A stretch of 64,000 nucleotides of DNA. Origin: an uncultured Chthoniobacter sp. GTDB taxonomy: Bacteria; Verrucomicrobiota; Verrucomicrobiia; Chthoniobacterales; JACTMZ01. Position 1 is the stretch's first letter, and each line of letters starts with the position of its first letter. The notes below the pieces were generated by a model, which worked only from the letters and a program-made list of their open reading frames with translations, was not told where the DNA came from and did no database searches. Shown here in pieces: positions 26,174 to 56,471 of the stretch. Location: the NCBI GenBank assembly GCA_964609925.1, contig CAZSUJ010000004.1:9534-73533 (forward strand). The letters are read 5' to 3'. A program made the position numbers and the translations under genes.

Positions 26174-26196
26174 CGACGCAAGCGCCCGACCAAGAG

Positions 26197-27690: not shown

Positions 27691-29751
27691 CTATCCTCCG
27701 GTTATGGCGATCTCGGAGGCACCTGTGGCGACGAGGCACTCGAGGAGCCACAAGCCGCGGCCCAGCGACCGCGCTTCGGGCTGGCCAATCGAGCGCGGTT
27801 GCTCGTGATTCGTCCAGAAAAGGAGGGGCCCCTGCTCGATCATGCGGACAACGAGCCGCTCCGGAGTCGCTTCGACCGTTGCGACGGCTGCCGGGCCGAG
27901 GAATTTGTCGGAACGTCCGAATACGGCCCAACCATTCCTGACCCGGGCCAACCAGAACATCTCGTCGCCGAAGGTTGGGATTTCGAAGGACCACGTGTCG
28001 CCCGCTGCCAGCGGTCTCCCCTCGCGGGTGTTCCAGCGGAAGGCGACGACCTGATTGCTCTCCTGGTCAGCCCCCGGCAGAAGCTTCATGGCATCGGCGA
28101 AGTCGCCATGCGTGAGTTCGCCGCGAACCGCGATCTCGGGTGACGTCAGGTTGTAAGCAACGACCACGGCGGCGTCTCGATGGATGGGGGCCAAGGCGCG
28201 AAAGGCGCGGTCGCTGCGATACGAGTCGATAAAGATGCTTTCGGGCGCCGGGAGCGCCGGTTCCGCAGCACGGAGGATGTGGCCGTCGGAAAGGCACAAG
28301 CGTTCCACGAGGTTACGGTCGATGTTGGCGGGCGCATCGGAGAGGTAGATCGGTCCGCCGGAAACGGCCTTGCTGCGCGCCATGATTTCGCCGGCCACGG
28401 GATCGTTCGAGTGGAACATGTCGTGGTCACCCCAGACGGTGCCGCGCATCCAGAGCATGTTGGCGAACGAGTTGTTGAGATGGTGCTTGGCGCGCCACAG
28501 GTCGCCCAGCTTGTAATCCTCGCTGCAGCGCGTCACGGCGCTGCGGCGCGTGTGGAAGTGGCAGAGGTTGTTGTGTGCCATGCAATTGATCATGGCTTCC
28601 ATGCGCGAGGCTGCGGCTTCCTCCAGCGCCTGATGGTTCGACGACGCGGCCGGCACGGCATGCGGGACGCGCCCTTGGTAGAACGTGAGATTCTTCGCCT
28701 GGTTGTCCACCTTGATGAAATCGAATCCCGCGGCCTGCTGGGCGGCGACGAGGGCGTCATAAAACTTGCGCGCGTGCTCGATCCCCGGGCGCGGTTGCAG
28801 GGTGCCGGGAGAAACCTCCACGAGCGCATCGTTGAGGTCGCCGAGTTCGTTCTCAGCCGCGATGCCGCCCCAATAGCCATTGAAGTTGAGCCACACGCCG
28901 AGCCAACGGAACCCGCATTCGCGCGCAGCCTGCACGACCGGTTCCCAGCCGTGCGGGAAATGCGGACGGTAAACGCCGAGGCTGTTCAACCGCCTCTGAT
29001 TCTCTCCCGCGGGGATTTCGGCCTCGTCGCTGGCGGGCGGCTGCGTTCCGGGAGGATAGCCGCCGATTTCATCGAGGTGCCCATCGTCCACCATGACCCA
29101 GCGCACCGGCACACCGGAGGCGGCAATGTCCTGGAAGGCGTGGACGAGAAGATCCTCATTGATCTGCCAGTGGAATTCCTCCCACGAGCACCAGCCGAGG
29201 TATTCGAAGACCTCGGGATAGGTCTTCTCGCGACGCAAGCCAAGACGGGCGGTGACCTCGGGAACGGATGCCGCTTCGTTCCACACCCGGTCCACCGCAT
29301 CGTAAGGATGCTCGGCCACAGCCCATGCGAGCACGGGTGCCGCTGCCGCCTGCAAGCCGTCGGTCCCCCAGTGGTCCACCTCCACCAGCAGTCCCTGCTC
29401 ATCGCCACGCATCCACGCCATGAAGTCACGGGTCACCAGCGGCAGGAGCGCGAGGAAACGCCCGTCGGCCAGACGCGCCATGGCGAACATCCCTCCCCTC
29501 TTCAAGTTTGTGAAACTCTGCACCACCAAAGGGTGGCCTTGGTTGTAGCCCTCCGGCCAGAGGTCCAACGCAGGGTTGATCGCGTTCTTCTGGAACGGGG
29601 CGAAATAGCAGGCCTCCGATATCGGGGGCAGCTCCATGCGGAAAACCGCGAGGGGACCGTCGCCGCGTTGGGCGTCGATGTCCGCACGGATGTGGCCGGC
29701 GTCCTCGGAGCCGACCGGATCAATTCGCATGCGCGGAGGCCCGTGCGTCAC
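27691..29751 (-). CDS. GH36-clan raffinose-synthase/Sip1-like glycosidase or transglycosidase, cytoplasmic
   Basis: Motif series [76 protein letters not shown] matches the Raffinose_syn family pattern. The GTG start at 29751 overlaps the upstream stop (GTGA). An alternative ATG at 29730 gives MRIDPVG. No signal peptide. Confidence 0.75.
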
Positions 29752-31253
29752 TCGAGTGGTTCCGGTTCAAAATCAGTCGGGTTCACCCAGCCGGAATCGG
29801 GCGTCTCCCCGCTCATGAACCGTTCGTAAAAATTCCTCGAATCCCCGGCATACGGCTCGGCTTCGAAAACGTCGCCCTGCCCGAACATCCGCGGATCACC
29901 CTGGCGTTTGAGTTCCTCGACAAGTTGGCGATGCATCTCGTCTTTGCGGACTTGGTGCTCGGGAGACGCCGCAAGGTTGTTCAAGCAGTCCGGGTCCTCC
30001 TCGAGATGGAAAAGCTCCTCGGCGGGATGTTTGCCGAAGCAAAGCGCCCAGTGGCGATCTCCCGGATCTTTGCGCCGCGCCTCTAGGATCACAGACTTCG
30101 TCGGGCTGCCATCGGTGTTCATGTAGCCGGTCTCAGGATTGCAGGACGGCCAACGCGCCGGCTCGAAGTTGCAGGAATAAAGCCAGCCGTGCTTGATGAG
30201 GCTCCGGATCGGATAACCTTCGTCACGCGGCCGGCCGACATCGTGCCGCTCCTGGCCAAGCAGGATGCGGCTTCGCGAGGCATGGGGCTTCTCCGCCGAG
30301 AATAAATCCGAGAGACTCACGCCGGCCGCGGGAGCCATTCCGGTCTCCTGCCAGCGGAGGCCGGCGACCTCGATGAACGTCGGTGCAAGATCGACCAGGC
30401 TGACATAATCGTCCACCACGCGCCCCGGAGCCTTGATCCCGCGTTTCCACATGGCAGCCAGCGGGACGTGGTTGGCGCCTTCGTAGAGGTTGCCCTTGCG
30501 GCGGGGAAAAGGCATCCCGTTGTCCGAGGTCACAACCACCAGTGTGTTCTCCAACTGGCCCCGCTTTTCCAACTCCTCCAACATCCGCCCGAGATGGCGG
30601 TCGAGGTGTTCAACCTCCAGGCTGTAGTCGAGCATGTCGTTGCGCACGGTTTCCACATCGGGCCAATAGGCCGGCACGCGGTCGATTTCGTCCGGGCTTT
30701 TCCCCCCCACCCTCACGCCGCTCCCGTATTCGTAATCGCGGTGCGGCTCGCGGCAGCCGAACCAGAAGCACCAAGGCTGCGCCTCCGGCGCCGCATCCAG
30801 AAAATCGCCGAAGTTCGCCGCATAGTCGTTGCTGTCGATGCCGGTGGTCGGTGGCGGCGACGTGTGCTTGTTGAACGGCCTGCCGGTCAGCCTGCGCTCT
30901 CCGCCGTCCGCGTCCAGCGCCACGCCCGGCGCCCATCCTTTGGCGGTGAAACCGATGAAATAGCCATGGGCGGCCAACGCCTCGGGATAGGTGATGAACT
31001 CCAAGGGAAAATACGCGTTGTGATTGCACGCCGCCTTGAGTTGCCACGGGTTACGGCCGGTAAGCATGCTGGCCCGGGACGGGGCGCACTTGGCGTTCGG
31101 AGTGTAGGCGTTGGCGAAGAGGATCCCTTCACGCGCAACCCTGTCGAAAGCTGGCGTGCGAACCCACGCACAGCCGTGGCACGAGGCGTGCGGGTGGCTC
31201 CAGTCGTCGGCCACAACCAGAAGGATGTTGGGTCTGTCGGTCTTCCGGTTCAC
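29748..31253 (-). CDS. Cys-type sulfatase without signal peptide (predicted cytoplasmic)
   Basis: [24 protein letters not shown] starts directly with the catalytic core. Also [13 protein letters not shown] and [10 protein letters not shown]. Confidence 0.85.
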
Positions 31254-31291
31254 TTCCTGTTACCCAGTGAAATGTTCCCCATTCCTGGCCC

Positions 31292-32323
31292 TCATGGAAT
31301 GATGAACTCCTCTCCGATCAGCCCGGCGATGTTGTCGTGGTGGGTGCGCATCTCTGCAACCAAGTCCTCGCCGGGCCATTCGTAGTGTCCGGTGAGGAAG
31401 ACCGAGGTGCGCTTGGGCCCCGGATGGGCATTGGCCACGGCGAATTGACCGGGCGGAGTCACCGCCGGGTCGAACAAAGCGCATGCGAAGACCACGGGAA
31501 TCCGGAGACGGCGGGCGGCCGTGGCTGCATCGAAGAACGCCAGCGTGCGGAGGATGGAATGGTCTTTGAGGTAGCGCTGACGCACCGCATTCGAACTCCC
31601 GACAGAGGGCTGTTGCAGGCGGATGGGATGGTGACCGAACGTCGGTTGCCCCAACTCGGCACTCTGGACCCTTTGCATCCACGGCAACGCGAGCGCCCCG
31701 ATGCCGCCACCGAAACTCCAACCAAAGTAATGCCAGCGATCCAACCGGCGCCTCAGCATCTCCTCAGCCGCTTCGGGCGCGCGCCAAATGGCGGCGGCAC
31801 AGAGCCCGAGCACGTAGGTTTCCGGCGATTCAATCCCGTGAACGACATGGCGGCCTGCATCATTCAAGGGCAGGCGAGGGTCGGCGGAAATATGAAACCC
31901 AGGAGCCACAGGCAGAATCACCGCGAATCCCGGACGGAAAAAGCGCGCTTCGACACCTGTCCGTCCATCGTAGCCGTGGGAGGCGACGATCCCCGCGCGG
32001 ATGGTGCGCTCGTCCTCCGGAGTCGCCAGCCACGCCGACGCACGGAAATCGCAGCCAATGTTGTAGCCCACCCGCCGGAGACGGAAGCCGGGGATCGCGG
32101 GAAAGTCCCCGCCCACGTCGAGATGCAGCGGTTCGGCGGCCGTGCAATCATGCAGTGTGCCCCAGAAATCCTCGAATCCCGGCGACTCCGTATCGGGTGC
32201 GGCCATTCGCCGGAGCGCTGCGGCATCGTAGCCGTGCGTGGGATCAAAGGGGAAGGAGTGGGCGATCCGCCCTGCATCTTGCGCGTCCTCGGCGCCAGCG
32301 GGGCGGACGGCGCATGCTTGCAT
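31292..32323 (-). CDS. CE7/acetyl-xylan-esterase-like alpha/beta hydrolase, cytoplasmic
   Basis: The ATG at 32323 gives MQACAVRP... The AXE1-type N-terminus is FDPTHGYDAAALRRMAAPDTESPGFEDFWGTLHDCTAAEP. The nucleophile elbow is GWSFGGG. The upstream part of ORF 31292..32608 overlaps the sulfatase gene and is discarded. There is a 2-nt gap to the upstream stop. Confidence 0.6.
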   Translation of the reverse strand: MQACAVRPAGAEDAQDAGRIAHSFPFDPTHGYDAAALRRMAAPDTESPGFEDFWGTLHDCTAAEPLHLDVGGDFPAIPGFRLRRVGYNIGCDFRASAWLATPEDERTIRAGIVASHGYDGRTGVEARFFRPGFAVILPVAPGFHISADPRLPLNDAGRHVVHGIESPETYVLGLCAAAIWRAPEAAEEMLRRRLDRWHYFGWSFGGGIGALALPWMQRVQSAELGQPTFGHHPIRLQQPSVGSSNAVRQRYLKDHSILRTLAFFDAATAARRLRIPVVFACALFDPAVTPPGQFAVANAHPGPKRTSVFLTGHYEWPGEDLVAEMRTHHDNIAGLIGEEFIIP

Positions 32324-32325
32324 GA

Positions 32326-33846
32326 TCAAGCGTTGGCGATGCGCGGCATGCGCATGGGCTCCTCGCGCAAGATGGTCTGCAGGAAGCGGTGCATCATTTC
32401 GGACTTCAGAGCGGCGGCGCCCGGTTCGTGCCAGAGATTGCGTGTTTCGCCGGGGTCGTTTGCAAGGTCGAACAACTCGCCGTCCGCACCATCCCGATAG
32501 ACGGTGATTTTGTGCGTTGGCGTGACGAGGGTCCGCATGTGGAAGGTCTCCGTGCCGTGGTGGTTTTCCACGATCGTCTCCGCGCGGACAGGTCCACCCC
32601 CAGCCCACGAATCGAGTTGGCTGTGTCCCGTCATGGATCCGGGGATTTCAAGTCCCGCCGCGGCGAGGAATGTCGGTGCGAGGTCCACAAGGTTCTGCAG
32701 ATCGGTGCTGGCCGCCCCGGCCGGAACCCGCCCCGGCCAGCGCACGAGGAAAGGCACACGCAGGATGTCCTCATACATGTGGATGGCTTTGGCCGTGAGC
32801 CCATGCTGCCCGAGGAAATGCCCGTGATCACTGGTGAAGACGACGATTGTGTTCTCCGCTTGGCCAGACTCTTCGAGGGCGTCGAGGATGCGACCAATCT
32901 CGCGGTCCATGAGGCTAGTCATACCGTAATAGCATGCCATGTCGGCGCGCAGCGTCGCGGCGTCGCGCGCCTGGAATCCGCCGCCGTGGATGGCCTCGCC
33001 GCGGGCGGCCTGACGCCAGAAGTCCGGGTCGCGCTCGACAGCAGCCTTGCGGAAATGCACGGGGTTCTTGTCATGCTCGCCGGGAACCATCGTGCCCGGC
33101 TCCATGGAGTCCGGGGCATACATTGAGGCCCACGGTTCCGGCACAAGGTAAGGCGGATGCGGGTCGTGGAAGCTCGACCAGATGAAGAACGGGCGCTCGC
33201 CCGCGGACTCCATCGCGGCGATGGTGCGGTCGGCCGTCCACACGGAGTAATGGAACTCTTCCGGCAAATCCCACGTCCGCGAGCGGTAGATGCGGTCCTT
33301 CTTGGCCGCGTCGGGCGGCCAGTCCTCGAAGTAGTCGCGCCAGTTCTTCAACCCTTTCTCCTCCATCCACAAGGCGTAGTGCCCCCCTGCGTGGGCCTCG
33401 GCCGTGTGCATCCGCGCGGTTTCGACGTGCTCGAAGCCATACCACGGGCCGTGAAAGCTGCGCCAGAAGTCAAGGTCGCGCAGGAGTGGCTGGCACTCGA
33501 TGGATTCCATGCCCGGGCGCGAGGCCAGGGGTTGGAAATGGGCCTTGCCCACCAGCGTGGTCGCATACCCTGCTCCGCCGAGCATGGGACCGATGGTCGG
33601 GACATCCTCGAAAAGCCTCGTTCCGAGGGTCCAAGCCCCGTGCTCGGAGGGCATCATGCCGGTCAGGATGCTGGCGCGACTGGGCGTGCAGGTCGGATTC
33701 GGACAGTAAGCCCGGTCAAACCTCGTGCCTCCGGCCCCCAACGAATCGAGGGCCGGTGTGGAGATGCTCGAATTCACTGCTCCGAGAGCGGACCAATGCT
33801 GCTGGTCCGAAGTTATAAGCAGGATGTTGGGGCGTGTGTTTGTCAT
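32326..33846 (-). CDS. Cys-type sulfatase without signal peptide (predicted cytoplasmic)
   Basis: The ATG at 33846 gives MTNTRPNILLITSDQQHWSALG. Also CTPSRASILTGM and VFTSDHGHFLGQHGL. Confidence 0.85.
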   Translation of the reverse strand: MTNTRPNILLITSDQQHWSALGAVNSSISTPALDSLGAGGTRFDRAYCPNPTCTPSRASILTGMMPSEHGAWTLGTRLFEDVPTIGPMLGGAGYATTLVGKAHFQPLASRPGMESIECQPLLRDLDFWRSFHGPWYGFEHVETARMHTAEAHAGGHYALWMEEKGLKNWRDYFEDWPPDAAKKDRIYRSRTWDLPEEFHYSVWTADRTIAAMESAGERPFFIWSSFHDPHPPYLVPEPWASMYAPDSMEPGTMVPGEHDKNPVHFRKAAVERDPDFWRQAARGEAIHGGGFQARDAATLRADMACYYGMTSLMDREIGRILDALEESGQAENTIVVFTSDHGHFLGQHGLTAKAIHMYEDILRVPFLVRWPGRVPAGAASTDLQNLVDLAPTFLAAAGLEIPGSMTGHSQLDSWAGGGPVRAETIVENHHGTETFHMRTLVTPTHKITVYRDGADGELFDLANDPGETRNLWHEPGAAALKSEMMHRFLQTILREEPMRMPRIANA

Positions 33847-33948
33847 GAAGCTCCGCGGCCGCAGGATTGGGCGGTGCGGTCCAGCCCCCTCAACGATCCC
33901 TCCGAGGGAGCGAGGCAGGACCGGGCCACTTACCCCCAAAGGCTCTAT

Positions 33949-36900
33949 TCATGGCACAACCGCGTCCACATCGAAGAAGCTGCGGTTGGTGGCCGGCACG
34001 GCGAACGCCTTGCGGGTGTAGTCGTTGGTCTGCGAAATCCCGCTCTGGTCGGCCGAGTTGGCCACAGTCACCGCCGCGTTGGTCCAAGGACCGGCGGAAA
34101 GGTTGGTCGTTGCATTCACGGAGTAGGCCACGCCAGTGTTCCTCTCGACCCAGCTGACCTCGGCGTTAGCTCCACTCTTCGTGGCACTCAGCAGGGCGGG
34201 CGAGCCCACAGCCGGGTTGCCGTCGAAGGAGAACTCCTCACCGTTGTCGAACCCGTCGCCATCCGGATCAGCCGCGGGCGCGGTATTCGTGAAGCCGGGA
34301 TAGGTGCCCTGCCAGAACGAAACCCACGAGTCGTAGGCGTTGGTCCCGCCAGACTGCACGGTGAGGACGCCCGTGGATTGGGCGAACACGTAGGTGGCCC
34401 CGTTGGTCGTGTTCGTCCAATTGCCGCCGGCGCCGCTGAAGCCATTGACGAGGAAATTCGTCCCGTAGTTCGCGACGACGTTGGTCCCCACGATGGTCCA
34501 ACTGTCGCCGCTGTTGGTCGAGGCGGCGGACAGGTCGAACTGGAAGTCGCCGTTCGCATTGAGCGTTCCGGTGCCGCTCACCCGGTTGTTCGTGCCGTTG
34601 CCGCCGACCGTGAAGGTGAGCAAGGCGTCTTCCGCCAGTGTGACCGCCCCGTCGGTGATGGTGGTGTTGCCGGCATGTGTGTTGGTGCCACGCAGCTCGA
34701 GCGTGCCGCCGGAGGTCTTGTTGAGGCCGCCGCCGCCGGTAAGGCCTTGGTTGATTTGCAGCGTGCCCGTGCCGTTGGTCTCGACGCGCACCGTGGCGGT
34801 GCCACCGGAGATCATGATCGACCCGCCGAGCACGTTGCGGCTGGTCGCCGTGGTCGTGGCCAAGGTCGCCCCGCCTGCGAGAGTGATGTTCTCGTTGTTG
34901 GTGAGGGCGTTGGTGGTGTTGTTGAAGAACGTCAGCGTGGCGTTCGAGGCGACCAAGGTGCCGAAGGCGCTGTCGCCCAGCGATCCAGCATTGTTCACGG
35001 AGGTCAGTGTGCCTTGGTCGACGTTGATCTGCCCCACGATCACGGTGCCCGGATTGATCGCCACGACGTTGGTGCCGGTCTTGGTCAGTGTGTTGGTTCC
35101 ACCGTTGACCAAGGTGCCGCTGCCTATGATGTCAATGCGGGCCGTTCCGCCTACGGAAGCATCGGAGGCCAGAGCGAGGCGCAGTCGTGTAGCGGTGGAC
35201 GTGCTGTTGTTCACCACTGCCCCCGCCCCGCCCGGGCCGTTGCCCGCGATGGTGACAACGCGCTCGGTGTTGTTCTGGCCGTTGAGGTCGAGCGTCGCGC
35301 CGCTGGCGACGGTGACGGCGTTTGATGTGCTGCCGAGAGAGTTGGAATTCGCAAGGCGCAGTGCACCGGAAGAGACGGTGGTGTTGCCTGTGTAGCCGTT
35401 TACCGCCGAAAGCGTGAGCGTGCCCACGCCGTCCTTCACGAGGGCGCCCGTGCCGGTGATCACCCCGGTGAAGTCGGCGTTGGTCGCCTGGTCGAGGTAG
35501 AAAACGCCATTGTTGGTGACGTCCCCGCCGAAGCTTTCGAGGGTGGTGCGGAGCGTGCCGCCGGAAATCGTCGTTGGCGAGGTCAGCGAATTCGAGCCGG
35601 CGAGGACCAGCGTCCCGGCGCCAGCTTTGGTCAATGCGCCGTTGGTCAGGCCGCCGTTGACGATCGCGGTGGCGGCGTTGACGGCGATCGTGCGGTTGCT
35701 GCCACCGAGATCCAGGCTGTTGGCGAACGTGAGCGTGCTGTTCGCCGTGGCGGCGTTGAGCACGAGAGTTGATGAGCCTTGGAGGAAGTTCGTTTGTCCC
35801 CATGTAAGCGCTGTCGGGCTGGAGGTGCCGCCAAGGGCCACGGTGATCGGGGCGCCGAAGGCGCTGAATCCAATGTTGGCGCTGGTCGAGTTGGTGTAGC
35901 CCACGCTGATAAGGCCAGCCCCGTCTCCAATCGAGCGGGTGATGCTCGCGCCACTTTCGAAGATGCCGCCGATAACACCACCGTTACCGAGCCGCAAAGT
36001 CGAATTGGTGGCGATGTTGACTCCATCGTTGGCCCGCAGCGTGCCCTGAGCAGTTATGATACCGTTGCTGTTGGTGTGGCTGACAGTTCCGTTGAGCACC
36101 GTGAGGGCGCCACCGGTGCCGACGAACAATGTCTGGCTCGAGACATTGAAAACGATCTTGCCATTGACAATGACCGTGCCGGCGCCATCGCCTGTCAAAC
36201 TGCCAATGCGGCCAAAGTTGCGGATCCAAAGATCGCCGTTGACGGTGGCGGAGGAGTTTGTGTTCCCGTTGTAAAGATACACGTTGCCGCCAAGACCGAT
36301 GTTGTTGGTCACGGTATTGCCGTTGAGGTCAAGGAACGCAGTATTCGTTCCGGGGTTGTTTGTTCCGACTGCGATGTTGCCCGCTCCTGCCGCCGTGCCG
36401 GAACCAAGGACCAAGCGACCGCTTTCGACCACCGTGGCGAACAACGGGATGCCGAAATTGGACTGCGTCAGATAATTGCTGATTGAACCCGTGTAACCGT
36501 TGGAGGAGTTGCTGAGAATCAGACGTCCGGGGCCGGCCTTGACCAAGCCGGCAGTGCCAAAGACCTGCGCGTCGAGGGTCACGCTTTTGTTCGTGCCCAA
36601 GGTGTTGACCGTGACGATCGGACTCGAGCCGGCCAAAGTCAGGGTGTTGTTGGTGTTGCCCCCGTTTCCGAGCGTCCAACCGGCGGCGGTGTTTGTCGCG
36701 GTGTCGCCAAAGACGAGGTTCCCGATCGTGACCGGGGCATTCAAGGTGACGGTGGAATCGTTCGTGATGTCGAGCGTGCTGAAGTTGGCCGTGTTGTTGC
36801 TGCCGCCGCCAATGACGCTGGCTTGCCAGTTCGCCGCCGTTTGCCAACTCCCGCTGGCACTACCGGCGGTGATGTTGGTCCAAGTCGCGGTGGTTTGCGC

Positions 36901-36954: not shown

Positions 36955-36977
36955 GGAGATGGAGGGTTCAGGATTTC

Positions 36978-37010
36978 ATATCGACATGTTCTATCTGAAT
37001 TTATCAATAC
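36978..37010. promoter_or_regulatory. Operator/promoter-like inverted repeat upstream of the PATR gene
   Basis: ATATCGAC (36978-36985) - 17 nt - ATCAATAC (37003-37010) inside an AT-rich 85-nt gap. It resembles the perfect repeat at 49593-49624, matching 6/8 and 7/8 per half-site. Confidence 0.35.
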
Positions 37011-37039
37011 TATTTTGCGATGTGGCGTTTTTCAACTGT

Positions 37040-39836: not shown

Positions 39837-39861
39837 TTGTGCGTGTCATCCGTGACGCTTT

Positions 39862-42074: not shown

Positions 42075-43503
42075 CCAGGCTGCGGCCGAAGCGCCAGTTG
42101 AAGGCGGTAATGGAGAAAAGCATGGCGAACAGGACCCAGGATACGGCGGCGGCGTAGCCGAAGTTCAGGTCCTGGAAGCCGACTGTGTAAATATAGTAGC
42201 TCAGCGTGGTGGTCGCCCCCGCCGGGCCGCCGCCGGTCATGACTCGCGCCTGCTCAAACCCGCCCTGCAATCCGCCGATGATCGACACGATCGAGATGAA
42301 GAAGGTCGTGGGCGCGAGCTGCGGCCAAGTGACATTGACAAAGCGCTGCCAGCGGTTGGCCCCGTCGATCTCCGCGGCCTCGGTGAGTTCGACCGGAACA
42401 TTCGACAACGCCGCGAGGTAAAGCAGCATGTTGGTGCCGCCGATGGCGGTCCAGAACCCCATGATCATGAGCGAGGGCTTGGCCAACTCGATGCTGGCCA
42501 GCCACTGCGGCAACTCCGATGCCTCGAGCCCCGTTAGGGCAGAGAGCATGGCATTGATCGGCCCGGTCTGCGGGTTGTAGAGCGCTTTCCACAGGATCAT
42601 GAGCGCCACTCCCGAGGTGAAGGCGGGCAGGTAGAAGATCGTCCGGAACGACACCACGTTGAACGCGAGGCCGAGCCCGGCGATGACCCACAAAACAGCA
42701 GCCAGCAACGCGGCATCGCGGAACCCCGCCGCCCAGAGCAGAGCCGCCAGTCCGAGTCCGCTGACCACGCAGAGCCCCGCAGCCGGCCAGGCCCGCCCCT
42801 TTTTCACCGGCAGAGAGTCATTCAACAGGATCGCCAAAACCAAGGAACCCGCCACGGAAAAAGGCAACGCGAGCATCATGTAAACGGTGTTGTAGAGATA
42901 ATGCCAAAACCGGGGGTCGTTCGCCTCGTAGGCGCTCCACATCGCGCTGTGCAAGAAGACGAGTCCGGCCGAACCCGCCACCACCGCCACGCCCGGCAGC
43001 AGGCCCGCCCGCGGCGCCGTTTCATGCTCGCCGGGCTTGTTGTCCCAGAGCATCCAGCCCAGCACCGAAAAAACCACGGCCACAATCAACAGGCTGTGGT
43101 GCGCGCCGGCCCCGACCGCTCCGGCGCCGATCGCCAGCGAAGCGACGAAGAACGATGCGGCGCCACCGCGACCGCAGCGCACGCCGCTCAGCCCCATCCA
43201 TACCGCCCCGATCACCCCGGCCAGCACAAGCAGCACGCTGCCGCAATAGGCGGCGATGACCAGCGGCGCGCCCGCGCCGATCGCCGAAAAGCCGAGCGCA
43301 TCCTCGAAGTTCCGCAGCCCGACAAACTCACGGGGCACGGACGGCTTCAAAGTCCAGTTGGTGAAGGCCATTCCCAGCGAGAGGACCACGGGGAACAAGG
43401 TGAACAGGAAGAAGCCCCCGAAATTCGGCAGCAGAAAACCGAAGACCGCAGCCGGCGGGCCCTTGGGGCGCCGCGGGCGAACTGGTCTGCCGCTGGTGCT
43501 CAT
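42067..43503 (-). CDS. Carbohydrate ABC transporter permease (MalF/UgpA-like) with two extra hydrophobic insertions
   Basis: The ATG at 43503 overlaps the upstream stop (ATGA). EAA loop LTEAAEIDGANRWQRFVNVTWPQLAP. The canonical FVGLRNFEDALGF and NDPRFWHYLYNT blocks are separated by ~120 hydrophobic residues. Confidence 0.8.
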   Translation of the reverse strand: MSTSGRPVRPRRPKGPPAAVFGFLLPNFGGFFLFTLFPVVLSLGMAFTNWTLKPSVPREFVGLRNFEDALGFSAIGAGAPLVIAAYCGSVLLVLAGVIGAVWMGLSGVRCGRGGAASFFVASLAIGAGAVGAGAHHSLLIVAVVFSVLGWMLWDNKPGEHETAPRAGLLPGVAVVAGSAGLVFLHSAMWSAYEANDPRFWHYLYNTVYMMLALPFSVAGSLVLAILLNDSLPVKKGRAWPAAGLCVVSGLGLAALLWAAGFRDAALLAAVLWVIAGLGLAFNVVSFRTIFYLPAFTSGVALMILWKALYNPQTGPINAMLSALTGLEASELPQWLASIELAKPSLMIMGFWTAIGGTNMLLYLAALSNVPVELTEAAEIDGANRWQRFVNVTWPQLAPTTFFISIVSIIGGLQGGFEQARVMTGGGPAGATTTLSYYIYTVGFQDLNFGYAAAVSWVLFAMLFSITAFNWRFGRSLDV

Positions 43504-46500
43504 GGCGCAACCTCCGGCTCGATTTTGATCTTCATCACCGCTTGCACCCCGTTGGCTCCCCAAGATCCGATCTCCCAAGGGTAGAGCGACTTGGCCGGGT
43601 CGGGGGACACCACGTTGTTGTCCTCGATGAGTCCGCGGATCGAAGTCAGGAGCAGGCCCGGGGACGCCCCGCCGTCGATACGGTTATTGCGCAAGGTGAT
43701 GTTGCTGAAAGCTCCGGCCGGCGAGATCGTCCCGTCCCCGCCGGCGGCGAGAACAGCGACGCCCATGCCGCCACCCTCGGTGATCAAGTTGTCAGCAATC
43801 ACAAGGTTGTCGGCCAGACCCGCTTCGAGCCACCAGTATTCCGGCGCGATGTAGACGGCGGTCATGCGCGCGCCCTCGATGTGGTTGCCCGTGATCTCGC
43901 CTTGGCCGGCCTTGACGAGAATGCCGCGCGAGCGGTTTTGTCCGACGTGGCAGTTGCGGATGATGAAGCCGCTGCCGATGGCGCCTGCATCGCAGATGAG
44001 GGTTCCGGGGACGATATCCCCCACGGCAGCGTCCAAGGTGACCAGAAAACCGTCCTCCATCGCCGTTCGGCCGAGGTCGCCATTGAACTTCTGCTCAAGG
44101 AGCATGGCGCGTTCCTCGGGAGTGGCCGGTCCGTCGTCGACGACGGAAACGACCCGGCGATTATCCGGCCTCAGCCCGCTCCTGGTGAAAAGTTGGACGT
44201 CGTCGCCGGGTTGCAGGGTCATGCCGGATTTCGCCAGCACGCGCAGGGCGGCCCCCTCCACGCGGGTGATGTAGTGAAAGTCGCCGTTGATCGCGATGGC
44301 GTCGTCGCCCATGTGGAAGGCCGAGCAACCGTCATAGACCGGCCCCCTCCGCGCGTTCTTCGAGTGGAACGCATCCGCGTTGAGCGAACGAAGCCGCCGG
44401 TGCTCCCGCGAGCGCAAATCGTCGGTCGGCTCCCGCCGCTCGACCCGGCATTTGATGTAGCGGGATCCCTCGCAGCCGTTCTCGAGAAAACCGAAGCTGT
44501 TGCTCGCGTGCAGAGTGACCCTCTCCATGACCAGCCCCTTGCTTCCGGTTGCGTAGATGGTGTGGGGCATGCTGCCGCCCGGCGCGTAACTCGTCTTGAT
44601 CACGGCAATGTCGCCGATCTGCTCGTTTGCGTAAGCCAGGTTGGACGATGACTTGGTCAATACGGCCCGCATGGGTCCACTTGGCTCGCACAGCGTGCTG
44701 TAATACGTCATGCGTCCGCGCAGGCTGCCGGTGGCGGGATCGAAAACTTCCACGGACCCGGTTGACGTTCCCGGCTCCGGGTAGCCCTCGAGAATTTCCA
44801 CCTCGAGGCGTGATGCGTCAGCCGAGATGGAGGTGATGCGCCCCTGCGTGAATGGCAAGGGGTCGTAGTCGATGGTCAGGCCGCGGATCGTGACATTCTC
44901 GCAGCCCTCGATGGTGATCGCCCGGGTAGTTTCCGTGCAGACCATCTCCACCTGATCGGCGATGATCTCGGTGTCCTTCACACCCCGCAGGAGGAGGTGC
45001 TGCCGGCTCGAGGGCCGGACCCGATAGCGGCCCGGCGGTATTACAATCCGTTTTTCGCCGGCCGCCACCCGCGTAGCGATGAACGTGGGCAACCACGCCG
45101 TGTCCTCCACCGGGGTCGGACCCGGCGTGGCAATGACCGTGCCGACCCGGTAGAATGCGGTGTCGGTCGCGGGGACAACGAATTCCTTGCGGTGGTAATC
45201 CGCCGGCATGGGGATGCCTTCCTGGTTGCGTGAATTGGAAATCGTCACGCCGGCGGTGACCCACGGGCCGGTGTTCAAGTTGGTCGTCGTTTGCACCAGA
45301 TAACTCACGCCGCCGGGCGGGTTGTTGCGCGCGATGAAGCTGAAGACCAGATTCTCACCGTTGCCCGTCGCGATTAGCACGGCTCCGTCCGCCGACGTTG
45401 GGTTGCCGCCGAAGGCGAACTCGGCTTCGTTGTTGAGAAGGTCTCCATCGGCGTTGTCCACGGCCGCGGTGCTTCTGAACCCCGCAGCCTCGCTCTGCCA
45501 AAGCCCGACCCAATAAGCGTAGTTGTTCGTCACGGGAGCCTGCACAACCCTCAAAACGCTGTTGGACTGGGCGAACACGTAGCTGATGCCGTTGGCTGCG
45601 TTCGTCCATTTGCCGTCGCCGCCATTGAAGCCGCGGACGAGAAAATTCGCGCCGTAGGTGTTGGTCAGATTTCCGGTCAGGATGGTCCAACTGTCGCCCA
45701 CGCGGGTCGAGGCACCGGTGAGGTCGAAATCGAACTCCCCATCGATGCTGGTTGCGCCTGTGCCGCCCAAGGTGTTGTTCGTGCCGTTGCCGCCGATGAG
45801 GAAGCGCAGCGAGCCTCCGGAAACGAGGTTGATGGCACCTTCCTCCACCAGGGTGTTGCCGGTGTGGCTGCTGTTTCCTCGCAACTCCAGTGTGCCGGAG
45901 CCGGTTTTGTTGAGATGACCGGCACCGGTGACGGCCCCGCCGAGAATCAAGGTGCCCGTGCCCCGGGGATCGACGCGCACCGAGGCAGTGCCCGGGCTCA
46001 AGGTGATGCTACCGTCGAGGATGTTGGGGCTGGTGGCAAGTGTGCCGGCCAGTTCAGCGCCGTCCGCGAGGGTGATGTCCTCGCGGTTGCTGATGGCCGA
46101 GCCGCTGCTGTTGAAGAACTGCAGACTGGCGTTGGAGGCAACAAGTGTGCCGAAGTTTGTGTCGCCGAGGGCGGTTCCGCTGTTGACCACGACCACAGCC
46201 CCCCGGTTGAGGAGGAGGCTGCCCATCGAGGTCACACCAGTATTGATGATGAACGAATTGGTTCCGACTTTGGTCAGGGTGTTGGTGCCGGCATCGATCA
46301 CCGTGCCGCCAAACGAGGTGTCGATCCGCGCCGTGCCGCCGAGCGACGCATTCGTGGCGAGGACGAGGCGAAGGCCCGTGGCGGAATTGGTGCCACGGTT
46401 GACCAGCGCGGCACTGCCGCCTACACCCCTGCCGCTGATTGTGACGGTCTCCCCGCCGATGTTGAAGCCGTTCAGATCCAAGGTTGCTCCGGCCTCAACC

Positions 46501-46847
46501 GTGGTGCCATCGGCGATCGCACCCAGGGCGTTGGTCTGGCCCACACGGAGCACGCCCTGCGAGACGGTTGTGACGCCGTTGTAGGTGTTCGGTGCGGCCA
46601 GGACCAAAGTTCCCGCTCCGGTCTTGGTCAGGCCGCCCGTTCCTGTGCTGTTGGAAACCACTCCGGTCATGGTTGCTGTCTGGGTTGGAACGCTGACCGT
46701 GAGGATCGAGCCGTTGAGGTCGATCGCATTGGTGTAAACCAAGTTCGTGCTGTTCGTCGGCGGGCTGAGCACGAGATTCGTCGACGCCTGCACGATGCAA
46801 GCGGAGCCGAGCAGGGCAGCCAAAAGAAGGAGGGTGCGGGGAAGCAT
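43500..46847 (-). CDS. Secreted chimeric protein: PATR region + TSP3-like module + right-handed beta-helix enzyme domain
   Basis: The ATG at 46847 gives the signal MLPRTLLLLAALLGSACIVQA. The N-terminal ~590 aa is collinear with the C-terminal part of 33949..36954. The C-terminal ~520 aa is collinear with 46936..48741 (IVIPPGRYRVRPS..., LTIDYDPLPFTQGRITSIS..., SLNADAFHSKNARRGP..., MGDDAIAINGDFH...). Confidence 0.75.
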   Translation of the reverse strand: MLPRTLLLLAALLGSACIVQASTNLVLSPPTNSTNLVYTNAIDLNGSILTVSVPTQTATMTGVVSNSTGTGGLTKTGAGTLVLAAPNTYNGVTTVSQGVLRVGQTNALGAIADGTTVEAGATLDLNGFNIGGETVTISGRGVGGSAALVNRGTNSATGLRLVLATNASLGGTARIDTSFGGTVIDAGTNTLTKVGTNSFIINTGVTSMGSLLLNRGAVVVVNSGTALGDTNFGTLVASNASLQFFNSSGSAISNREDITLADGAELAGTLATSPNILDGSITLSPGTASVRVDPRGTGTLILGGAVTGAGHLNKTGSGTLELRGNSSHTGNTLVEEGAINLVSGGSLRFLIGGNGTNNTLGGTGATSIDGEFDFDLTGASTRVGDSWTILTGNLTNTYGANFLVRGFNGGDGKWTNAANGISYVFAQSNSVLRVVQAPVTNNYAYWVGLWQSEAAGFRSTAAVDNADGDLLNNEAEFAFGGNPTSADGAVLIATGNGENLVFSFIARNNPPGGVSYLVQTTTNLNTGPWVTAGVTISNSRNQEGIPMPADYHRKEFVVPATDTAFYRVGTVIATPGPTPVEDTAWLPTFIATRVAAGEKRIVIPPGRYRVRPSSRQHLLLRGVKDTEIIADQVEMVCTETTRAITIEGCENVTIRGLTIDYDPLPFTQGRITSISADASRLEVEILEGYPEPGTSTGSVEVFDPATGSLRGRMTYYSTLCEPSGPMRAVLTKSSSNLAYANEQIGDIAVIKTSYAPGGSMPHTIYATGSKGLVMERVTLHASNSFGFLENGCEGSRYIKCRVERREPTDDLRSREHRRLRSLNADAFHSKNARRGPVYDGCSAFHMGDDAIAINGDFHYITRVEGAALRVLAKSGMTLQPGDDVQLFTRSGLRPDNRRVVSVVDDGPATPEERAMLLEQKFNGDLGRTAMEDGFLVTLDAAVGDIVPGTLICDAGAIGSGFIIRNCHVGQNRSRGILVKAGQGEITGNHIEGARMTAVYIAPEYWWLEAGLADNLVIADNLITEGGGMGVAVLAAGGDGTISPAGAFSNITLRNNRIDGGASPGLLLTSIRGLIEDNNVVSPDPAKSLYPWEIGSWGANGVQAVMKIKIEPEVAP
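45126..45530 (-). other. Copy E of the recurrent TSP3-like + beta-rich module (internal, at the fusion junction)
   Basis: TNNYAYWVGLWQS...DNADGDLLNNEAEFAFGGNP...LNTGPWVTA...TAFYRVGTVIAT, followed by the linker PGPTPVEDT. Confidence 0.6.
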
Positions 46848-46935
46848 CTGCAGCAATCGAAGCGGACGATTTGCATGATGGCGCGCACAGGCGGAATTCT
46901 TCGTTGGCCTCCATGCGGGATTCACCGGGCGTCCC

Positions 46936-48741
46936 TCACGGCGCGGCGACCACCGGTTCGACGTTGACCTGCATGACCGGTTGAACTCCATTCCGGCCCC
47001 AAGGCCCGACTTGCCGCGGATGGAGGGCCATGTCCGGGTCGGGTTCGATGACGTTGTCTGCTTCGACCAGGCTGCGCACCGAGGTGACCAGAAGCCCGGG
47101 GCTCGGCCCGCCTTTGACGGAGTTGCCGGTGATGCTGATGTTATTGAAGGTTCCGGCCGGGGAGATGATGCCGGCTTCCCTGCCGACGGAAATCACGGCG
47201 ATGCCCATGCCCCGGCCCTCGGAGATGCGGTTGCGGGCGATCACGAGATTGTCCGACATGCCGGCCTCGAGCCACCAGTATTCCGGTGTGACAAGGATGG
47301 AGGTCATGAGTGAGCCGGTGATTTCGTTGTCCGTGATCTCGCCGCGCCCCGCTTTGACAAGGATGCCTCGCGAGCGGTTGTGTCCGAGGCGGCAATGGCG
47401 GATGGCGAATCCGTTGCCAATGCCGTCGGAATCGCAAACCATGGTGCCGAGCCCCACGCCCTCCACCGGTTCCTCAAGCACGATGCGGTAGGCGTCGTTG
47501 AGACCGTCGCGGCGGATGTCGGGATAGAGGTTGCGGGACATGACGTCCTTGCGCTCGTCCTCGGTGATCTTGCCGTCGGGCGTGACCGAGACAACGCGCC
47601 GGTCGGGCAGGCGCGTGCCGTCGGGGTTGAGGAATTGAACGGCGTCGCCCGCGCGGATTTGCATCACGCGTTTAGCCAGCACGCGGAGTTCCGCGCCCTT
47701 GGCTTCGGTGACGAAGTGAAAGTCCCCATTGATGGCGATGGCGTCATCGCCCATGAAGAATGCGCTGCAGTGCTCGTAGGTCGGGCCGCGCCGCGCGTTC
47801 TTCGAGTGGTAGGCGTCGGCGTTCATCGAGCGAAGGCGTGGCATCTCGCGCACCACGGGGTCGTGCTCGGGCGCGCGGCGGTCCACCCGGCAGCGGATGT
47901 AGCGCGAGTTGTTGCAACTGTTCTCGAAGAATCCGAAGGTCGGTCCGGCATAGAGCGTGACATCCTCAAAGACCAACCCCTCGCTGTCCGTCGCCATGAT
48001 CGCGTGGGGCTGCCTGCCGCCCGGGGCATAGGTCACCGAGATCACGGCAATGTCCCCGACCTTCTCGATGGCGAACTCCTCGGTGGCGCTCCGCTTTGTG
48101 ATGACGGCCCGCATGGAGTCCTCCATCGAGGTGGTTGCACCGAAGTGCGTGGTGCGCTCGCGCAAACGGCCGGTGGCCGGGTCGAAAATCTCCACCGAGC
48201 CGATAATCTCGCTGTTGCCCGGTTCAGCGTAGCCGTCGAGGATTTCAACGGTCAGGCGCGAGGTGTCCTCCGAAATCTCCACAATGCGCCCCTGCGTGAA
48301 CGGGAGGGGATCGTAGTCGATGGTGAGGCCCCTGATCGTGAGATTCTGGCAGTTCTCGATGGTGACGGCACGCGTGGTTTCGGTGCAGACCATCTCGACC
48401 CCTTCCATGACAAGCGTCACGTCCTGAAGCCCCGCGAGCCGCAGATGCTCGCCGTTTTCCGGTTCGACGCGGTAGCGTCCGGGGGGCACGACAATCGTCT
48501 TTTCGCCGGCTGCCAAGGCGTCTGCGATGATCCCCCGCAAATCGGCCAGAACCTCCTCAGGGGCCGGTCTCCCGGGGGAAGGAGTGACTGAGGACGCAGA
48601 GGGGGCTTCGGCTGTTGCTGCCGCCGCGGCGGGAGGGTTGGCCTCGGCCTGACGCGCGGGTTGCGGCGTCGGCCGGCAGGAGGCAGAGGTCATGGCAAGC
48701 AGACCTGCGATAAGAAGATAATGGCGGGTGGTCGTGTTCAT
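46936..48741 (-). CDS. Right-handed beta-helix enzyme (GH110-like, tentative), probable lipoprotein
   Basis: The ATG at 48741 gives MNTTTRHYLLIAGLLAMTSASC, then an Ala/Pro-rich linker. Also IVVPPGRYRVEPENGEHLRL, LTIDYDPLPFTQGRIVEIS, SMNADAYHSKNARRGP, MGDDAIAINGDFH and PbH1-like turns (RHCRLGHNRSRGILVKAGRGEITDNEI). Confidence 0.7.
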   Translation of the reverse strand: MNTTTRHYLLIAGLLAMTSASCRPTPQPARQAEANPPAAAAATAEAPSASSVTPSPGRPAPEEVLADLRGIIADALAAGEKTIVVPPGRYRVEPENGEHLRLAGLQDVTLVMEGVEMVCTETTRAVTIENCQNLTIRGLTIDYDPLPFTQGRIVEISEDTSRLTVEILDGYAEPGNSEIIGSVEIFDPATGRLRERTTHFGATTSMEDSMRAVITKRSATEEFAIEKVGDIAVISVTYAPGGRQPHAIMATDSEGLVFEDVTLYAGPTFGFFENSCNNSRYIRCRVDRRAPEHDPVVREMPRLRSMNADAYHSKNARRGPTYEHCSAFFMGDDAIAINGDFHFVTEAKGAELRVLAKRVMQIRAGDAVQFLNPDGTRLPDRRVVSVTPDGKITEDERKDVMSRNLYPDIRRDGLNDAYRIVLEEPVEGVGLGTMVCDSDGIGNGFAIRHCRLGHNRSRGILVKAGRGEITDNEITGSLMTSILVTPEYWWLEAGMSDNLVIARNRISEGRGMGIAVISVGREAGIISPAGTFNNISITGNSVKGGPSPGLLVTSVRSLVEADNVIEPDPDMALHPRQVGPWGRNGVQPVMQVNVEPVVAAP

Positions 48742-48749
48742 GAGCTGGC

Positions 48750-49571
48750 TCAAAATTGTCCGTTGCAGAATTTCGTGCGCTTCTGCTGCTGGCTGCCGGT
48801 TGGCACAAGTTCCTCGGGCATTTTGGCCCACTCCTCGGCCGTGTGGGCCGAGATGCTGCCGTCAGCCCAGAGCACGTTGCCCCTTCCGTTATGGCGCGTG
48901 GCGAACGCCCTGCCCTCATTTGACTCCGAGGCGCTCGGCGTGAACGTCTCGGCGGATCCCCCGTAGAAGTTGTTTTGAAAAACCATGTCGATCAGCACGG
49001 GCAACTTGCTCGGACGCGACACCGCCACGATGCGATCCACGCTGTTTCCATTGTTACGGATCGAATCCCGGTTGCTGTTGAGCTGTGCGTTGTATCCGTA
49101 GTGCATCGGATAGCGGGGGTCGGCGGCAGTGGATTCGGGCATCCGAGCCCAAGACGTTTGGCCGGTTGGAGAGGTAGCCGGGGCGCCGGGGCATACGAAA
49201 ACTTCGCGACTCTTTCCCACATACGGCCAGATGTCCACCAGCCAGCCCATGGACGCCCCTGACCCAGCCGGGAGCGGCGGAGTCCAAGTGCCGCCGCCGT
49301 CACCCCAGCCGCCACGGGGAAACGTGCCGTTGTTGTCAGCCGCGAACGATGCGACGGCGGCACCGATAGACTTCATGTTGGCCATGCACTTCGCGGAAGC
49401 GCCGCGGCCGAGCATGCTCTGCGCTGTAGGAATCGCCAACGCAGCGAGGACTGCGATGATCGCAACCACCGCGAGCAGTTCCATGAGGCTGAAACCGCGG
49501 TTGTCGGGACCGCAGGTTCCAACGGTGAGGCCGAATCGCAAACCATGCCGATGAGGGAGGGGGGAGGACAT
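48750..49571 (-). CDS. Prepilin-type N-terminal cleavage/methylation protein with an H-X9-DG C-terminal motif
   Basis: ...DNRGFSLMELLAVVAIIAVLAALAIP is the class-III signal. The C-terminal TRHNGRGNVLWADGSISAHT fits H-X9-DG exactly. It is the first gene of the minus-strand block, with an 8-nt gap to the next gene. Confidence 0.8.
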   Translation of the reverse strand: MSSPLPHRHGLRFGLTVGTCGPDNRGFSLMELLAVVAIIAVLAALAIPTAQSMLGRGASAKCMANMKSIGAAVASFAADNNGTFPRGGWGDGGGTWTPPLPAGSGASMGWLVDIWPYVGKSREVFVCPGAPATSPTGQTSWARMPESTAADPRYPMHYGYNAQLNSNRDSIRNNGNSVDRIVAVSRPSKLPVLIDMVFQNNFYGGSAETFTPSASESNEGRAFATRHNGRGNVLWADGSISAHTAEEWAKMPEELVPTGSQQQKRTKFCNGQF

Positions 49572-49592: not shown

Positions 49593-49624
49593 GTATTGAC
49601 ATGATTTGATGGCTGCGTCAATAC
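49593..49624. promoter_or_regulatory. Perfect 8-bp inverted repeat in the divergent promoter region (operator and/or face-to-face promoters)
   Basis: GTATTGAC (49593-49600) - 16 nt - GTCAATAC (49617-49624). Each arm contains a TTGAC(A/G) -35-like hexamer for one direction and an AATAC(T/A) -10-like element for the other. A second small palindrome, TTGTATCACAA, lies at 49630-49640 just before the regulator ATG. Confidence 0.5.
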
Positions 49625-56423: not shown

Positions 56424-56471
56424 TTTTCATGAGGGCCAGTCTGGGGAGATTGGTTCCTTTGGGGGTAAATA

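Follow-up and report, generated by a model that had tools for sequence, protein, structure and literature searches.

We propose that the 13 consecutive minus-strand genes between nucleotides 27691 and 49571 of a 64-kb window (GC content approximately 63%) of contig CAZSUJ010000004.1, from an uncultured Chthoniobacter sp., probably constitute a catabolic locus resembling a polysaccharide utilization locus (PUL) without SusC/D. The substrate is likely to be a glycan that contains alpha-linked galactose, at the least Gal-alpha-1,3-Gal, and carries sulfate and O-acetyl groups. In the pathway which we envisage, two exported GH110-like paralogs would cut the glycan outside the cytoplasmic membrane and release alpha-galactose-containing fragments, and a MalEFGK-type ATP-binding cassette (ABC) importer would carry these oligosaccharides into the cytoplasm. 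There a GH110 enzyme, a GH36-type enzyme, two formylglycine-type sulfatases and a CE7-like deacetylase would convert them to galactose, sulfate and acetate. An AraR-type regulator, presumed to be a repressor, may bind a palindrome at the head of the block and a similar site in an internal gap, and thereby control two co-regulated units, 49571–37040 and 36954–27691. The regulator's own unit would also encode a secreted 206-amino acid protein and a secreted PhoD-like enzyme.

Organization of the block

Families were assigned from Pfam and NCBIfam scans of the translated open reading frames (ORFs), and the features of the locus are collected in Table 1. The co-directional block of 13 genes had been described in a first-pass annotation of this DNA; the ORF listing, the translations and a check of the junctions bear it out, and all 13 family assignments made at that time were recovered in the Pfam and NCBIfam scans. 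Across the window the strand pattern reads +++++--++, then the 13 minus-strand genes, then ++++---++. The block is not a chance run, since its order is also kept in other genomes (see below). Stop and start codons overlap at five junctions, exactly as annotated: ATGA at 43500–43503, GTGA at 41217–41220 and again at 29748–29751, 8 nt at 42067–42074, and 23 nt at 38148–38170.

It had further been claimed that the 85 nt between 36955 and 37039 form the only real gap. Among the gaps of the locus, only this one (GC 0.38) and the intergenic region at the head (GC 0.36) are rich in AT, and the former is the only such gap within the block. Start codons were chosen from ORF limits and N-terminal features, and the preferred starts at 46847 (PATR enzyme) and 33846 (first sulfatase, ATG) leave two more gaps, of 88 nt (46848–46935, GC 0.61) and 102 nt (33847–33948, GC 0.69), both with the average GC content of the genome. 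The claim is therefore defensible.

Carbohydrate-active enzymes (CAZymes), a sugar transporter and a transcription factor are co-localized here, which makes the block a CAZyme cluster in the broad sense. Pfam scans of the 13 block proteins and 17 flanking ORFs, the divergent regulator among them, revealed no TonB-dependent receptor or SusD, in agreement with the earlier view of a PUL-like arrangement lacking SusC/D.

GH110 and GH110-like enzymes

The identities of the GH110 and GH110-like products point to alpha-galactosidic linkages in the putative substrate. Judged by its sequence, the "cytoplasmic beta-helix enzyme" of the first-pass annotation (38148–39821) is a clear GH110 member. The Pfam models for GLAA-B barrels I and II both score above cut-off, and in the PDB the protein matches PdGH110B (7jw4, E=7.7e-105) and GH110A (9beh, E=2.7e-85). 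In PdGH110B, Asp-344 is the general acid and Asp-321 and/or Asp-345 activate the water molecule (McGuire et al., PMC7939477), while Arg-451 selects a galacto-configured sugar at position +1 (PMC7939477). Equivalents of D321, D344, D345 and R451 are all kept in the block enzyme, the GNRARG sequence of which aligns with the corresponding PdGH110B motif. Its named relatives form a taxonomically mixed set from Capsulimonas, Paludibaculum, Tepidisphaeraceae, Acidobacteria, Cytophagales and Akkermansiaceae; one scan of genome contigs with six exact GH110 peptide patterns returned relatives from Armatimonadota only, at 45–47% identity (L003–L005; MFD09671.bin.1.19, Capsulimonas).

The two exported enzymes are paralogs, residues 570–1114 of the PATR enzyme (43500–46847), that is its C-terminal 545 residues, being 57% identical to the lipoprotein enzyme (46936–48741). 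They show approximately 23% identity to the block's GH110 (BLASTP E=6e-16). No PDB match was obtained for them by single-sequence phmmer, and the Pfam GLAA-B models were not matched. A profile built from their family matched only GH110 structures in the PDB, with GH110A and GH110B the best (E=1e-14 to 1e-11). The lipoprotein enzyme was also modeled with AlphaFold2 (predicted local distance difference test, pLDDT, 89; predicted template-modeling score, pTM, 0.87). When this model was compared with the PDB using Foldseek, the top 15 matches were all GH110 enzymes, with template-modeling (TM) scores of 0.57–0.69 by query length and E-values of about 1e-24; the next fold reached a TM score of 0.33. 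For the match to the GH110 fold, TM scores of 0.67–0.71 were also recorded. Identity to the solved GH110 enzymes in the structure alignments is 14–17%.

In an alignment of 42 sequences of this family, D309, D332 and D333 are invariant and align with D321, D344 and D345 of PdGH110B. An N-R-S-R-G motif aligns with the GH110 arginine motif; R458 and G459 are present in all 42 members, and N455, R456 and S457 in at least 90% of them. The family is large, comprising at least 1075 clusters at 50% identity (profile E<=1e-30), and many members are multidomain proteins in which the catalytic module is C-terminal. More distant members (48–52% identity) are found in other CAZyme contexts together with esterases, fucosidases and rhamnosidases. 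On the strength of these sequence and model comparisons, we place the exported enzymes in an uncharacterized sister family of GH110, do not count them as proven members of GH110 itself, and predict that the lipoprotein enzyme is an exported inverting alpha-galactosidase or alpha-galactanase.

One could instead regard the exported proteins as beta-helix binding or adhesin proteins, with depolymerization taking place elsewhere: the family has no characterized member and no single-sequence match in the PDB, and one of the two copies is fused to an adhesin-like PATR module. Conservation of all three catalytic aspartates across 42 diverse members, an N-R-S-R-G motif that is invariant or nearly so, and a modeled whole-chain fold that matches GH110 leave this idea with hardly any probability in our judgment.

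Related loci

Identical copies of the proteins were found on an NCBI contig of 78,947 bp and in Logan assemblies. The locus in GCA_041736875.1 (L006/L008), whose GH110 is 67% identical, reads regulator/prepilin-like protein, GH110-like enzyme, PATR–GH110-like fusion, two permeases, binding protein, DUF4886 esterase, GH110, ATPase, PATR protein, sulfatase, SASA esterase and AXE1. A closer relative, L010 (GH110 88% identical), is without the PATR enzyme and has the PhoD-like gene. Locus L014 consists of regulator/prepilin-like protein, GH110-like enzyme, importer, DUF4886 esterase, GH110 and sulfatase, and L009 and L015 are devoid of the importer. In L012, from the Planctomycetota metagenome-assembled genome GCA_039815175.1, a LacI regulator is accompanied by GH110, prepilin-like, GH110-like, PhoD-like and sulfatase genes.

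Five genes thus form the core of the GntR-type loci. They encode the regulator, a secreted protein of about 205 amino acids, the prepilin-like protein, the cytoplasmic GH110 and its exported GH110-like counterpart; a sulfatase and an esterase usually accompany them. The prepilin-like/GH110-like/GH110 trio is also present in the Planctomycetota locus. The ABC importer, the PATR proteins, the GH36-type enzyme and the second sulfatase are accessory and variable, and the esterases vary too. The PATR enzyme has an ortholog in L006/L008 and none in L010, L009 and L014, and the ortholog of the PATR protein at 33949–36954 comes after the ATPase in L008. A secreted protein of 204–206 amino acids with the motif LLPN(P/S)SFE follows the regulator in all GntR-type loci (L001, L006, L009, L010, L014 and L015), and the PhoD-like gene recurs in the window, L010 and L012.

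At 12845–17243 of L012, the module abuts genes for sulfated-polysaccharide synthesis, namely GT4 glycosyltransferases, a sulfotransferase and a Wzy-type polymerase, and in L009 it abuts glycosyltransferases. Such neighbors would be expected if the module served to turn over or remodel the cell's own sulfated surface polysaccharide or exopolysaccharide and not external glycans. We find this very improbable, as biosynthetic neighbors occur at only two of eight loci and none is present in this window, and as the module has what catabolic loci typically have, namely a sugar-responsive AraR-type regulator, a dedicated importer (in several genomes) and a complete set of finishing enzymes in the cytoplasm.

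Importer, sulfatases, esterase and GH36-type enzyme

The CUT1 (MalEFGK-type) importer is complete, with an SBP_bac_1 binding protein, two BPD_transp_1 permeases and an ATPase possessing MalK OB/TOBE domains. Matches of the binding protein to the NCBIfam MalE and GanS models are weak and under cut-off.

Both sulfatases have an intact C-x-P-x-R motif (CTPSR at residue 53 and CAPSR at residue 56, respectively). The best PDB match of the first is 7oz8, which is BT1918 of subfamily S1_46 (E=2e-45); its similarity to BT1918 is only moderate, and the specificity of S1_46 for 3S-GlcNAc (3-sulfated N-acetylglucosamine) was not adopted for the block enzyme. Signal-less orthologs of this sulfatase are located next to GH110 in L008, L009 and L014. 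The second sulfatase is best matched by the S1_8A enzyme 9bb9 (E=1.1e-30, residues 5–458). S1_8A is a galactose-2-sulfate 2-O-sulfohydrolase of the lambda-carrageenan pathway (PMC12549532).

The CE7-like esterase is homologous to the acetyl xylan esterase/cephalosporin-C deacetylase 1vlq (E=4e-12), contains a GxSxG nucleophile elbow at residue 201, and has an AXE1 ortholog in L008. Esterases of four unrelated families (AXE1, DUF4886, SASA and CE2/GDSL) recur in the related loci, which suggests that the substrate is acetylated. The GH36-type enzyme (PDB 7exf, E=2e-39) belongs to the raffinose-synthase/Sip1, alkaline alpha-galactosidase branch.

Cellular compartments

The first-pass annotation had interpreted the block as an outside-to-inside pathway, and the compartments assigned on that basis agree with manual inspection of the export signals and with six related loci. 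A class III leader (G/FSLMELL) with Glu+5 is present in the prepilin-like protein; in the lipoprotein enzyme, a Pro/Ala-rich linker comes after a PROSITE-type lipobox (TSAS-C). Sec-type signals are present in the PATR enzyme (MLPRTLLLLAALLGSACIVQA), the PATR protein and the binding protein, where the stretch may be a signal or an anchor. Manual inspection disclosed no export signal in the GH110, the two sulfatases, the CE7-like esterase, the GH36-like enzyme or the ATPase; upstream of the sulfatases there is either no room or no hydrophobic stretch for one. The six related loci show the same division: every GH110-like enzyme carries an export signal, of either the lipoprotein or the Sec kind, every GH110 lacks one, and so do three of the four adjacent sulfatases. 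The retention of signal-less sulfatases beside a signal-less GH110 suggests that import precedes desulfation, the reverse of the periplasmic order in Pseudoalteromonas.

Regulation and transcription units

The divergently transcribed AraR-type regulator noted earlier at the head of the block was confirmed by Pfam (GntR, residues 30–73; Peripla_BP_3, 194–365; Peripla_BP_1, 93–329), and an orthologous regulator occupies the same position in L001, L006, L009, L010, L014 and L015. Only two palindromes of the TTGAC-N16-GTCAA type are present in the 64 kb, where shuffled sequences lead one to expect 0.00–0.15: one lies between the regulator and the block, and the other in the 85-nt gap (Table 1). 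L006, L009, L010, L014 and L015 each have a single copy of TTGAC-N14-17-GTCAA, which in every case lies in the region separating the regulator gene from the prepilin-like gene. Its arms are kept (consensus ATGTTGAC...GTCAACAT) and the spacers are unrelated across the five loci; this pattern of conservation is the phylogenetic footprint of a putative control site. The promoter-like scan, which yielded 5 matches versus 2.2 ± 1.5 in shuffles, was used solely for the site in the 85-nt gap; the count from the terminator-like scan was not above that in shuffles. From the second copy of the palindrome in the gap, the distal five genes would form a second unit under the same regulator, and the block is probably made up of two transcription units with a common predicted operator.

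The AT-rich gap with its promoter-like site might instead divide two sets of genes with nothing to do with each other, a conserved core (prepilin-like protein, GH110-like enzyme, importer and GH110) and a distal set (PATR protein, sulfatases, esterase and GH36-type enzyme), so that the block would be a mosaic of independent units. The coming and going of the PATR enzyme, ABC importer, GH36-type enzyme and second sulfatase among relatives would fit, as would the fact that the entire 64-kb window is a sulfatase/glycosidase island. We nevertheless consider a mosaic unlikely. The gap holds the second copy of the head palindrome, which is found nowhere else in the window; the distal PATR protein shares 52% identity with the PATR module of the fusion enzyme; in L009 and L014 an ortholog of the first sulfatase comes directly after GH110; and in GCA_041736875.1 the PATR protein, sulfatase and AXE1 come after the ATPase in the same order.

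The functional locus reaches beyond 49571, taking in the regulator, the secreted 206-amino acid protein and the PhoD-like protein, to 53853. The 206-amino acid protein has no Pfam match (E<=10). The PhoD-like protein has no PDB sequence match, and its N-terminal part is without a Pfam match at the same threshold. The recurrence of the PhoD-like gene in L010 and L012 might hint at a phosphoester in the substrate.

Nature of the substrate

Since the GH110 is closest to PdGH110B and one of the sulfatases to S1_8A, both of them members of the lambda-carrageenan cascade (PMC12549532), the block could be the counterpart, in the Planctomycetes–Verrucomicrobia–Chlamydiae (PVC) group, of the Pseudoalteromonas lambda-carrageenan PUL (lambda-CarPUL), acting on this red-algal sulfated alpha-1,3/beta-1,4-galactan. 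A GH42 beta-galactosidase and more sulfatases are indeed encoded elsewhere in the window. Classical lambda-carrageenan is unlikely, because the block itself has no beta-galactosidase and no recognizable GH150-like endo-enzyme (no search was aimed at GH150). The GH36-type enzyme and the acetyl esterases are absent from the published cascade (PMC12549532). The block's large secreted proteins match no solved structures beyond GH110 or autotransporter passengers; the other block proteins compared with the PDB add only sulfatases, GH36 and CE7 enzymes to this list, and the S1_8A match of the sulfatase is only E=1e-30. Furthermore, the named relatives of the GH110 include Capsulimonas and Paludibaculum, which are terrestrial or wetland organisms. 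Taken together, we hold a lambda-carrageenan locus to be improbable.

For the PUL-like catabolic locus that we prefer, with its sulfated and acetylated alpha-galactose glycan, a number of observations have to be set on the other side of the balance. Pfam recognizes neither an endo-acting enzyme nor a beta-galactosidase among the block proteins. The block also lacks an outer-membrane transporter, the OprB porin lying 25 kb away, and no formylglycine-generating enzyme, which cytoplasmic sulfatases need, was seen in the window. Export signals were judged by manual heuristics and not by SignalP or LipoP. The importer is not obligatory, as L009, L012 and L015 are without it though their GH110 is signal-less, and the GH36-type enzyme and second sulfatase are not kept in all relatives. 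The equivalent of the internal gap in GCA_041736875.1 (L008) has one clear half-site only. Lastly, TTGAC is also the sigma-70 -35 consensus, and the head palindrome could in part be made up of back-to-back promoter elements; back-to-back -35 boxes do not, however, explain the copy of the palindrome in the unidirectional internal gap.

Prepilin-like and PATR proteins

The first gene of the block specifies a prepilin-like protein which scores above cut-off with NCBIfam IV_pilin_GFxxxE and Pfam N_methyl, and at 20.3 against a cut-off of 19 with pre_pil_HX9DG. E31 (Glu+5) and D237 are invariant in this protein, and H227 and G238 nearly so. Its AlphaFold2 model (pLDDT 87) has a helix at residues 29–79, and apart from this N-terminal helix no fold match was found in the PDB. 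The orthogroup is sharply bounded, identity running from 47 to 88% and then dropping to about 30%, and its members share contigs with orthologs of the GH110-like enzyme. In the Verrucomicrobiota-type loci and in the Planctomycetota genome alike, the prepilin-like gene lies directly upstream of that for the exported GH110-like enzyme. Among the Pfam-annotated genes of the 64-kb window there are none for pilus assembly (prepilin peptidase, ATPase, platform or secretin), and these may be elsewhere in the genome.

Perhaps this locus-specific protein is a dedicated pilin-like subunit for glycan capture or enzyme docking, which would, jointly with the exported enzyme, have a role at the surface like that of SusC/D-associated proteins in Bacteroidota, although we attach a rather low probability to the idea. 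Were it true, the very large families of H-X9-DG proteins in PVC bacteria would act as substrate-specific parts of the machinery for glycan acquisition, and polysaccharide uptake without SusC/D would become testable with one defined gene pair. We did not find the module described in the literature, where DUF1559 is mentioned in only four papers.

A second pair of this kind exists in the window: an N_methyl prepilin-like gene (6639–7433, plus strand) is followed by one for an exported protein with Glyco_hydro_cc and Ricin-lectin domains (7478–10966, plus strand). The order of prepilin-like gene and then exported glycosidase is the same as at the head of the block.

The larger of the exported enzymes had been annotated as PATR-tethered. 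Pfam upholds the fusion of PATR and beta-helix domains; the tether does not find support, as a PEP-CTERM anchor and a type V autotransporter barrel are missing from both PATR proteins of the block. Their C-termini consist of the GH110-like domain in one and a small unmatched domain in the other. PEP-CTERM is carried by a different PATR protein, at 53928–56423. The PATR protein at 33949–36954 possesses no catalytic domain and no PDB sequence match, and its C-terminal domain has no Pfam match (E<=10). Its C-terminal half and residues 81–572 of the PATR enzyme share 52% identity; together with the 57% identity to the lipoprotein enzyme, this implies that the PATR enzyme is a fusion of two modules which also exist separately in the block.

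Table 1. Genes and predicted regulatory sites of the locus
Feature	Position	Strand	Domains and remarks
AraR-type regulator, divergent	49648..50799	+	GntR helix-turn-helix (HTH) and LacI-type sugar-binding domain
Secreted 206-amino acid protein, downstream of regulator	50796..51416	+	Signal peptide, LLPNPSFE motif
Secreted PhoD-like metallophosphoesterase, third gene of divergent unit	51391..53853	+	Pfam PhoD, signal peptide
Operator-like palindrome GTATTGAC-N15-GTCAATAC	49593..49624	.	76-bp divergent promoter region, GC 0.36
Prepilin-like H-X9-DG/DUF1559 protein	48750..49571	-	N_methyl, DUF1559/SBP_bac_10 and H-X9-DG; first gene
Lipoprotein GH110-like beta-helix enzyme	46936..48741	-	Beta_helix, lipobox
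PATR and GH110-like fusion, secreted	43500..46847	-	Pfam PATR and Beta_helix
ABC permease 1, long, 478 amino acids	42067..43503	-	BPD_transp_1; ATGA overlap with upstream gene
ABC permease 2	41217..42074	-	BPD_transp_1; 8-nt overlap
Extracytoplasmic sugar-binding protein, CUT1 type	39862..41220	-	SBP_bac_1 (1.5e-33) and SBP_bac_8
Cytoplasmic GH110 alpha-1,3-galactosidase homolog	38148..39821	-	GLAA-B barrels I and II; Beta_helix
MalK-type ABC ATPase	37040..38170	-	ABC_tran, OB_MalK, TOBE_2; 23-nt overlap with GH110
Second operator-like site GTATTGAT-N17-GTCGATA	36979..37010	.	85-nt gap; overlaps promoter-like TTGAAA-17-TAGTAT
Secreted PATR-repeat protein	33949..36954	-	Four Pfam PATR matches, signal peptide
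First signal-less S1 sulfatase, CTPSR	32326..33846	-	Sulfatase (1e-48) and SGSH_C
Signal-less CE7-like esterase	31292..32323	-	AXE1 (5e-13)
Second signal-less S1 sulfatase, CAPSR, S1_8A-like	29748..31253	-	Sulfatase (2e-38)
Signal-less GH36-type alpha-galactosidase homolog, last gene	27691..29751	-	Raffinose_syn (4.5e-41); GTGA overlap with sulfatase

Other features of the window

The glycan-degradation island extends over both flanks, 1–27684 and 53928–62367. Sulfatases are encoded at 92–1864, 1839–3302, 26053–27684 (with a twin-arginine translocation, TAT, signal) and 57654–59165, the GH42 beta-galactosidase at 4124–6727, and a GH116 enzyme at 59236–62367. The only candidate for an outer-membrane sugar channel in the window is an OprB-family carbohydrate-selective porin (10997–12355, minus strand). 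Besides the PATR protein with a PEP-CTERM anchor (53928–56423), there is a giant PATR/PKD/M12-like protein at 21287–26173. A terminator-like GC-rich hairpin with a T-rich tail (27647–27673) marks the 3' end of the plus-strand TAT sulfatase, just before the end of the block at 27691.

The minus-strand ORF at 12419–20956 is free of stop codons over 2845 codons and seems to be two proteins run together in frame. The first part is a complete PEP-CTERM protein that ends with ...VPEPSTAALLL...RRRRR at about residue 760; the second starts with a signal-peptide-like sequence, VKTLLLAAVGTCWMVGVAGA, and continues for some 2000 residues with a weak match to a GH81 C-terminal domain. The assembly may be at fault, a stop codon may be missing, or the fusion may be genuine. 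A 130-amino acid sulfatase fragment (57140–57532, minus strand; profile positions 44–127) adjoins the full-length sulfatase at 57654–59165, which is on the same strand, and is probably a truncated remnant or pseudogene.

Comparison with known systems

CAZyme and sulfatase clusters of Verrucomicrobiota are known to be without SusCD, the place of which may be taken by other sugar transporters (Orellana et al. 2021, PMC8857213); the same authors flagged outer-membrane uptake in such clusters as an open question (PMC8857213). The block resembles these clusters (PMC8857213) in its co-localized glycosidases, sulfatases, esterases and non-SusCD transporter. Whereas the former feature GH29 fucosidases and sulfated fucose/rhamnose glycans, the block combines GH110 and its exported GH110-like relatives with an ABC importer, an AraR-type regulator and a locus-specific prepilin-like protein.

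With the lambda-carrageenan PUL of Pseudoalteromonas distincta U2A it shares the combination of a GH110 exo-alpha-1,3-galactosidase with S1 sulfatases for a sulfated galactan (PMC12549532, PMC7939477), to the extent that the predicted activities hold. The P. distincta GH110s have signal peptides and are periplasmic, unlike the GH110 and the sulfatases of the block, which are signal-less and accompanied by an ABC importer. Depolymerization in P. distincta begins with GH150 and involves a GH2 beta-galactosidase, neither of which was recognized in the block (as stated, GH150 was not searched for specifically). That PUL has S1_8 and S1_15 sulfatases, compared with a single S1_8A-like enzyme here, at E=1e-30. 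The exported GH110-like enzymes, GH36-type enzyme, CE7-like esterase, PATR proteins and prepilin-like protein are all additional to the P. distincta set.

Gram-positive-type PULs with AraR/LacI repressors, such as the arabinan/AraR system of Bacillus subtilis, combine a surface or secreted depolymerase with CUT1 import of oligosaccharides and cytoplasmic exo-glycosidases. The block has in common with them a predicted exported depolymerase, a regulator composed of a GntR HTH and a LacI-type domain, palindromes at more than one promoter, CUT1 import, and cytoplasmic finishing enzymes and esterases. It differs in that its diderm PVC host must bring the substrate across an outer membrane, in its cytoplasmic sulfatases, and in a palindrome distinct from the AraR box.

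When compared with the CAZy GH110 enzymes of known structure (7jw4, 9beh, 8pvs, 9i4f and 8yk1), the exported enzymes have the fold, the Asp triad and the Arg motif, and form a large family of their own. PUL-like loci without SusC/D are already known from Verrucomicrobiota; what is new is a sister family of GH110 in the role of exported enzyme and a strictly linked prepilin-like protein. Also new, as read from sequence, are the putative cytoplasmic finishing set of GH110 and sulfatases and a defined, conserved predicted operator. Once characterized, the exported enzymes would add to CAZy a new activity related to that of GH110, probably directed at alpha-galactans, and the five-part core would offer a tractable system for the sensing, capture and import of sulfated glycans without SusC/D in PVC bacteria.

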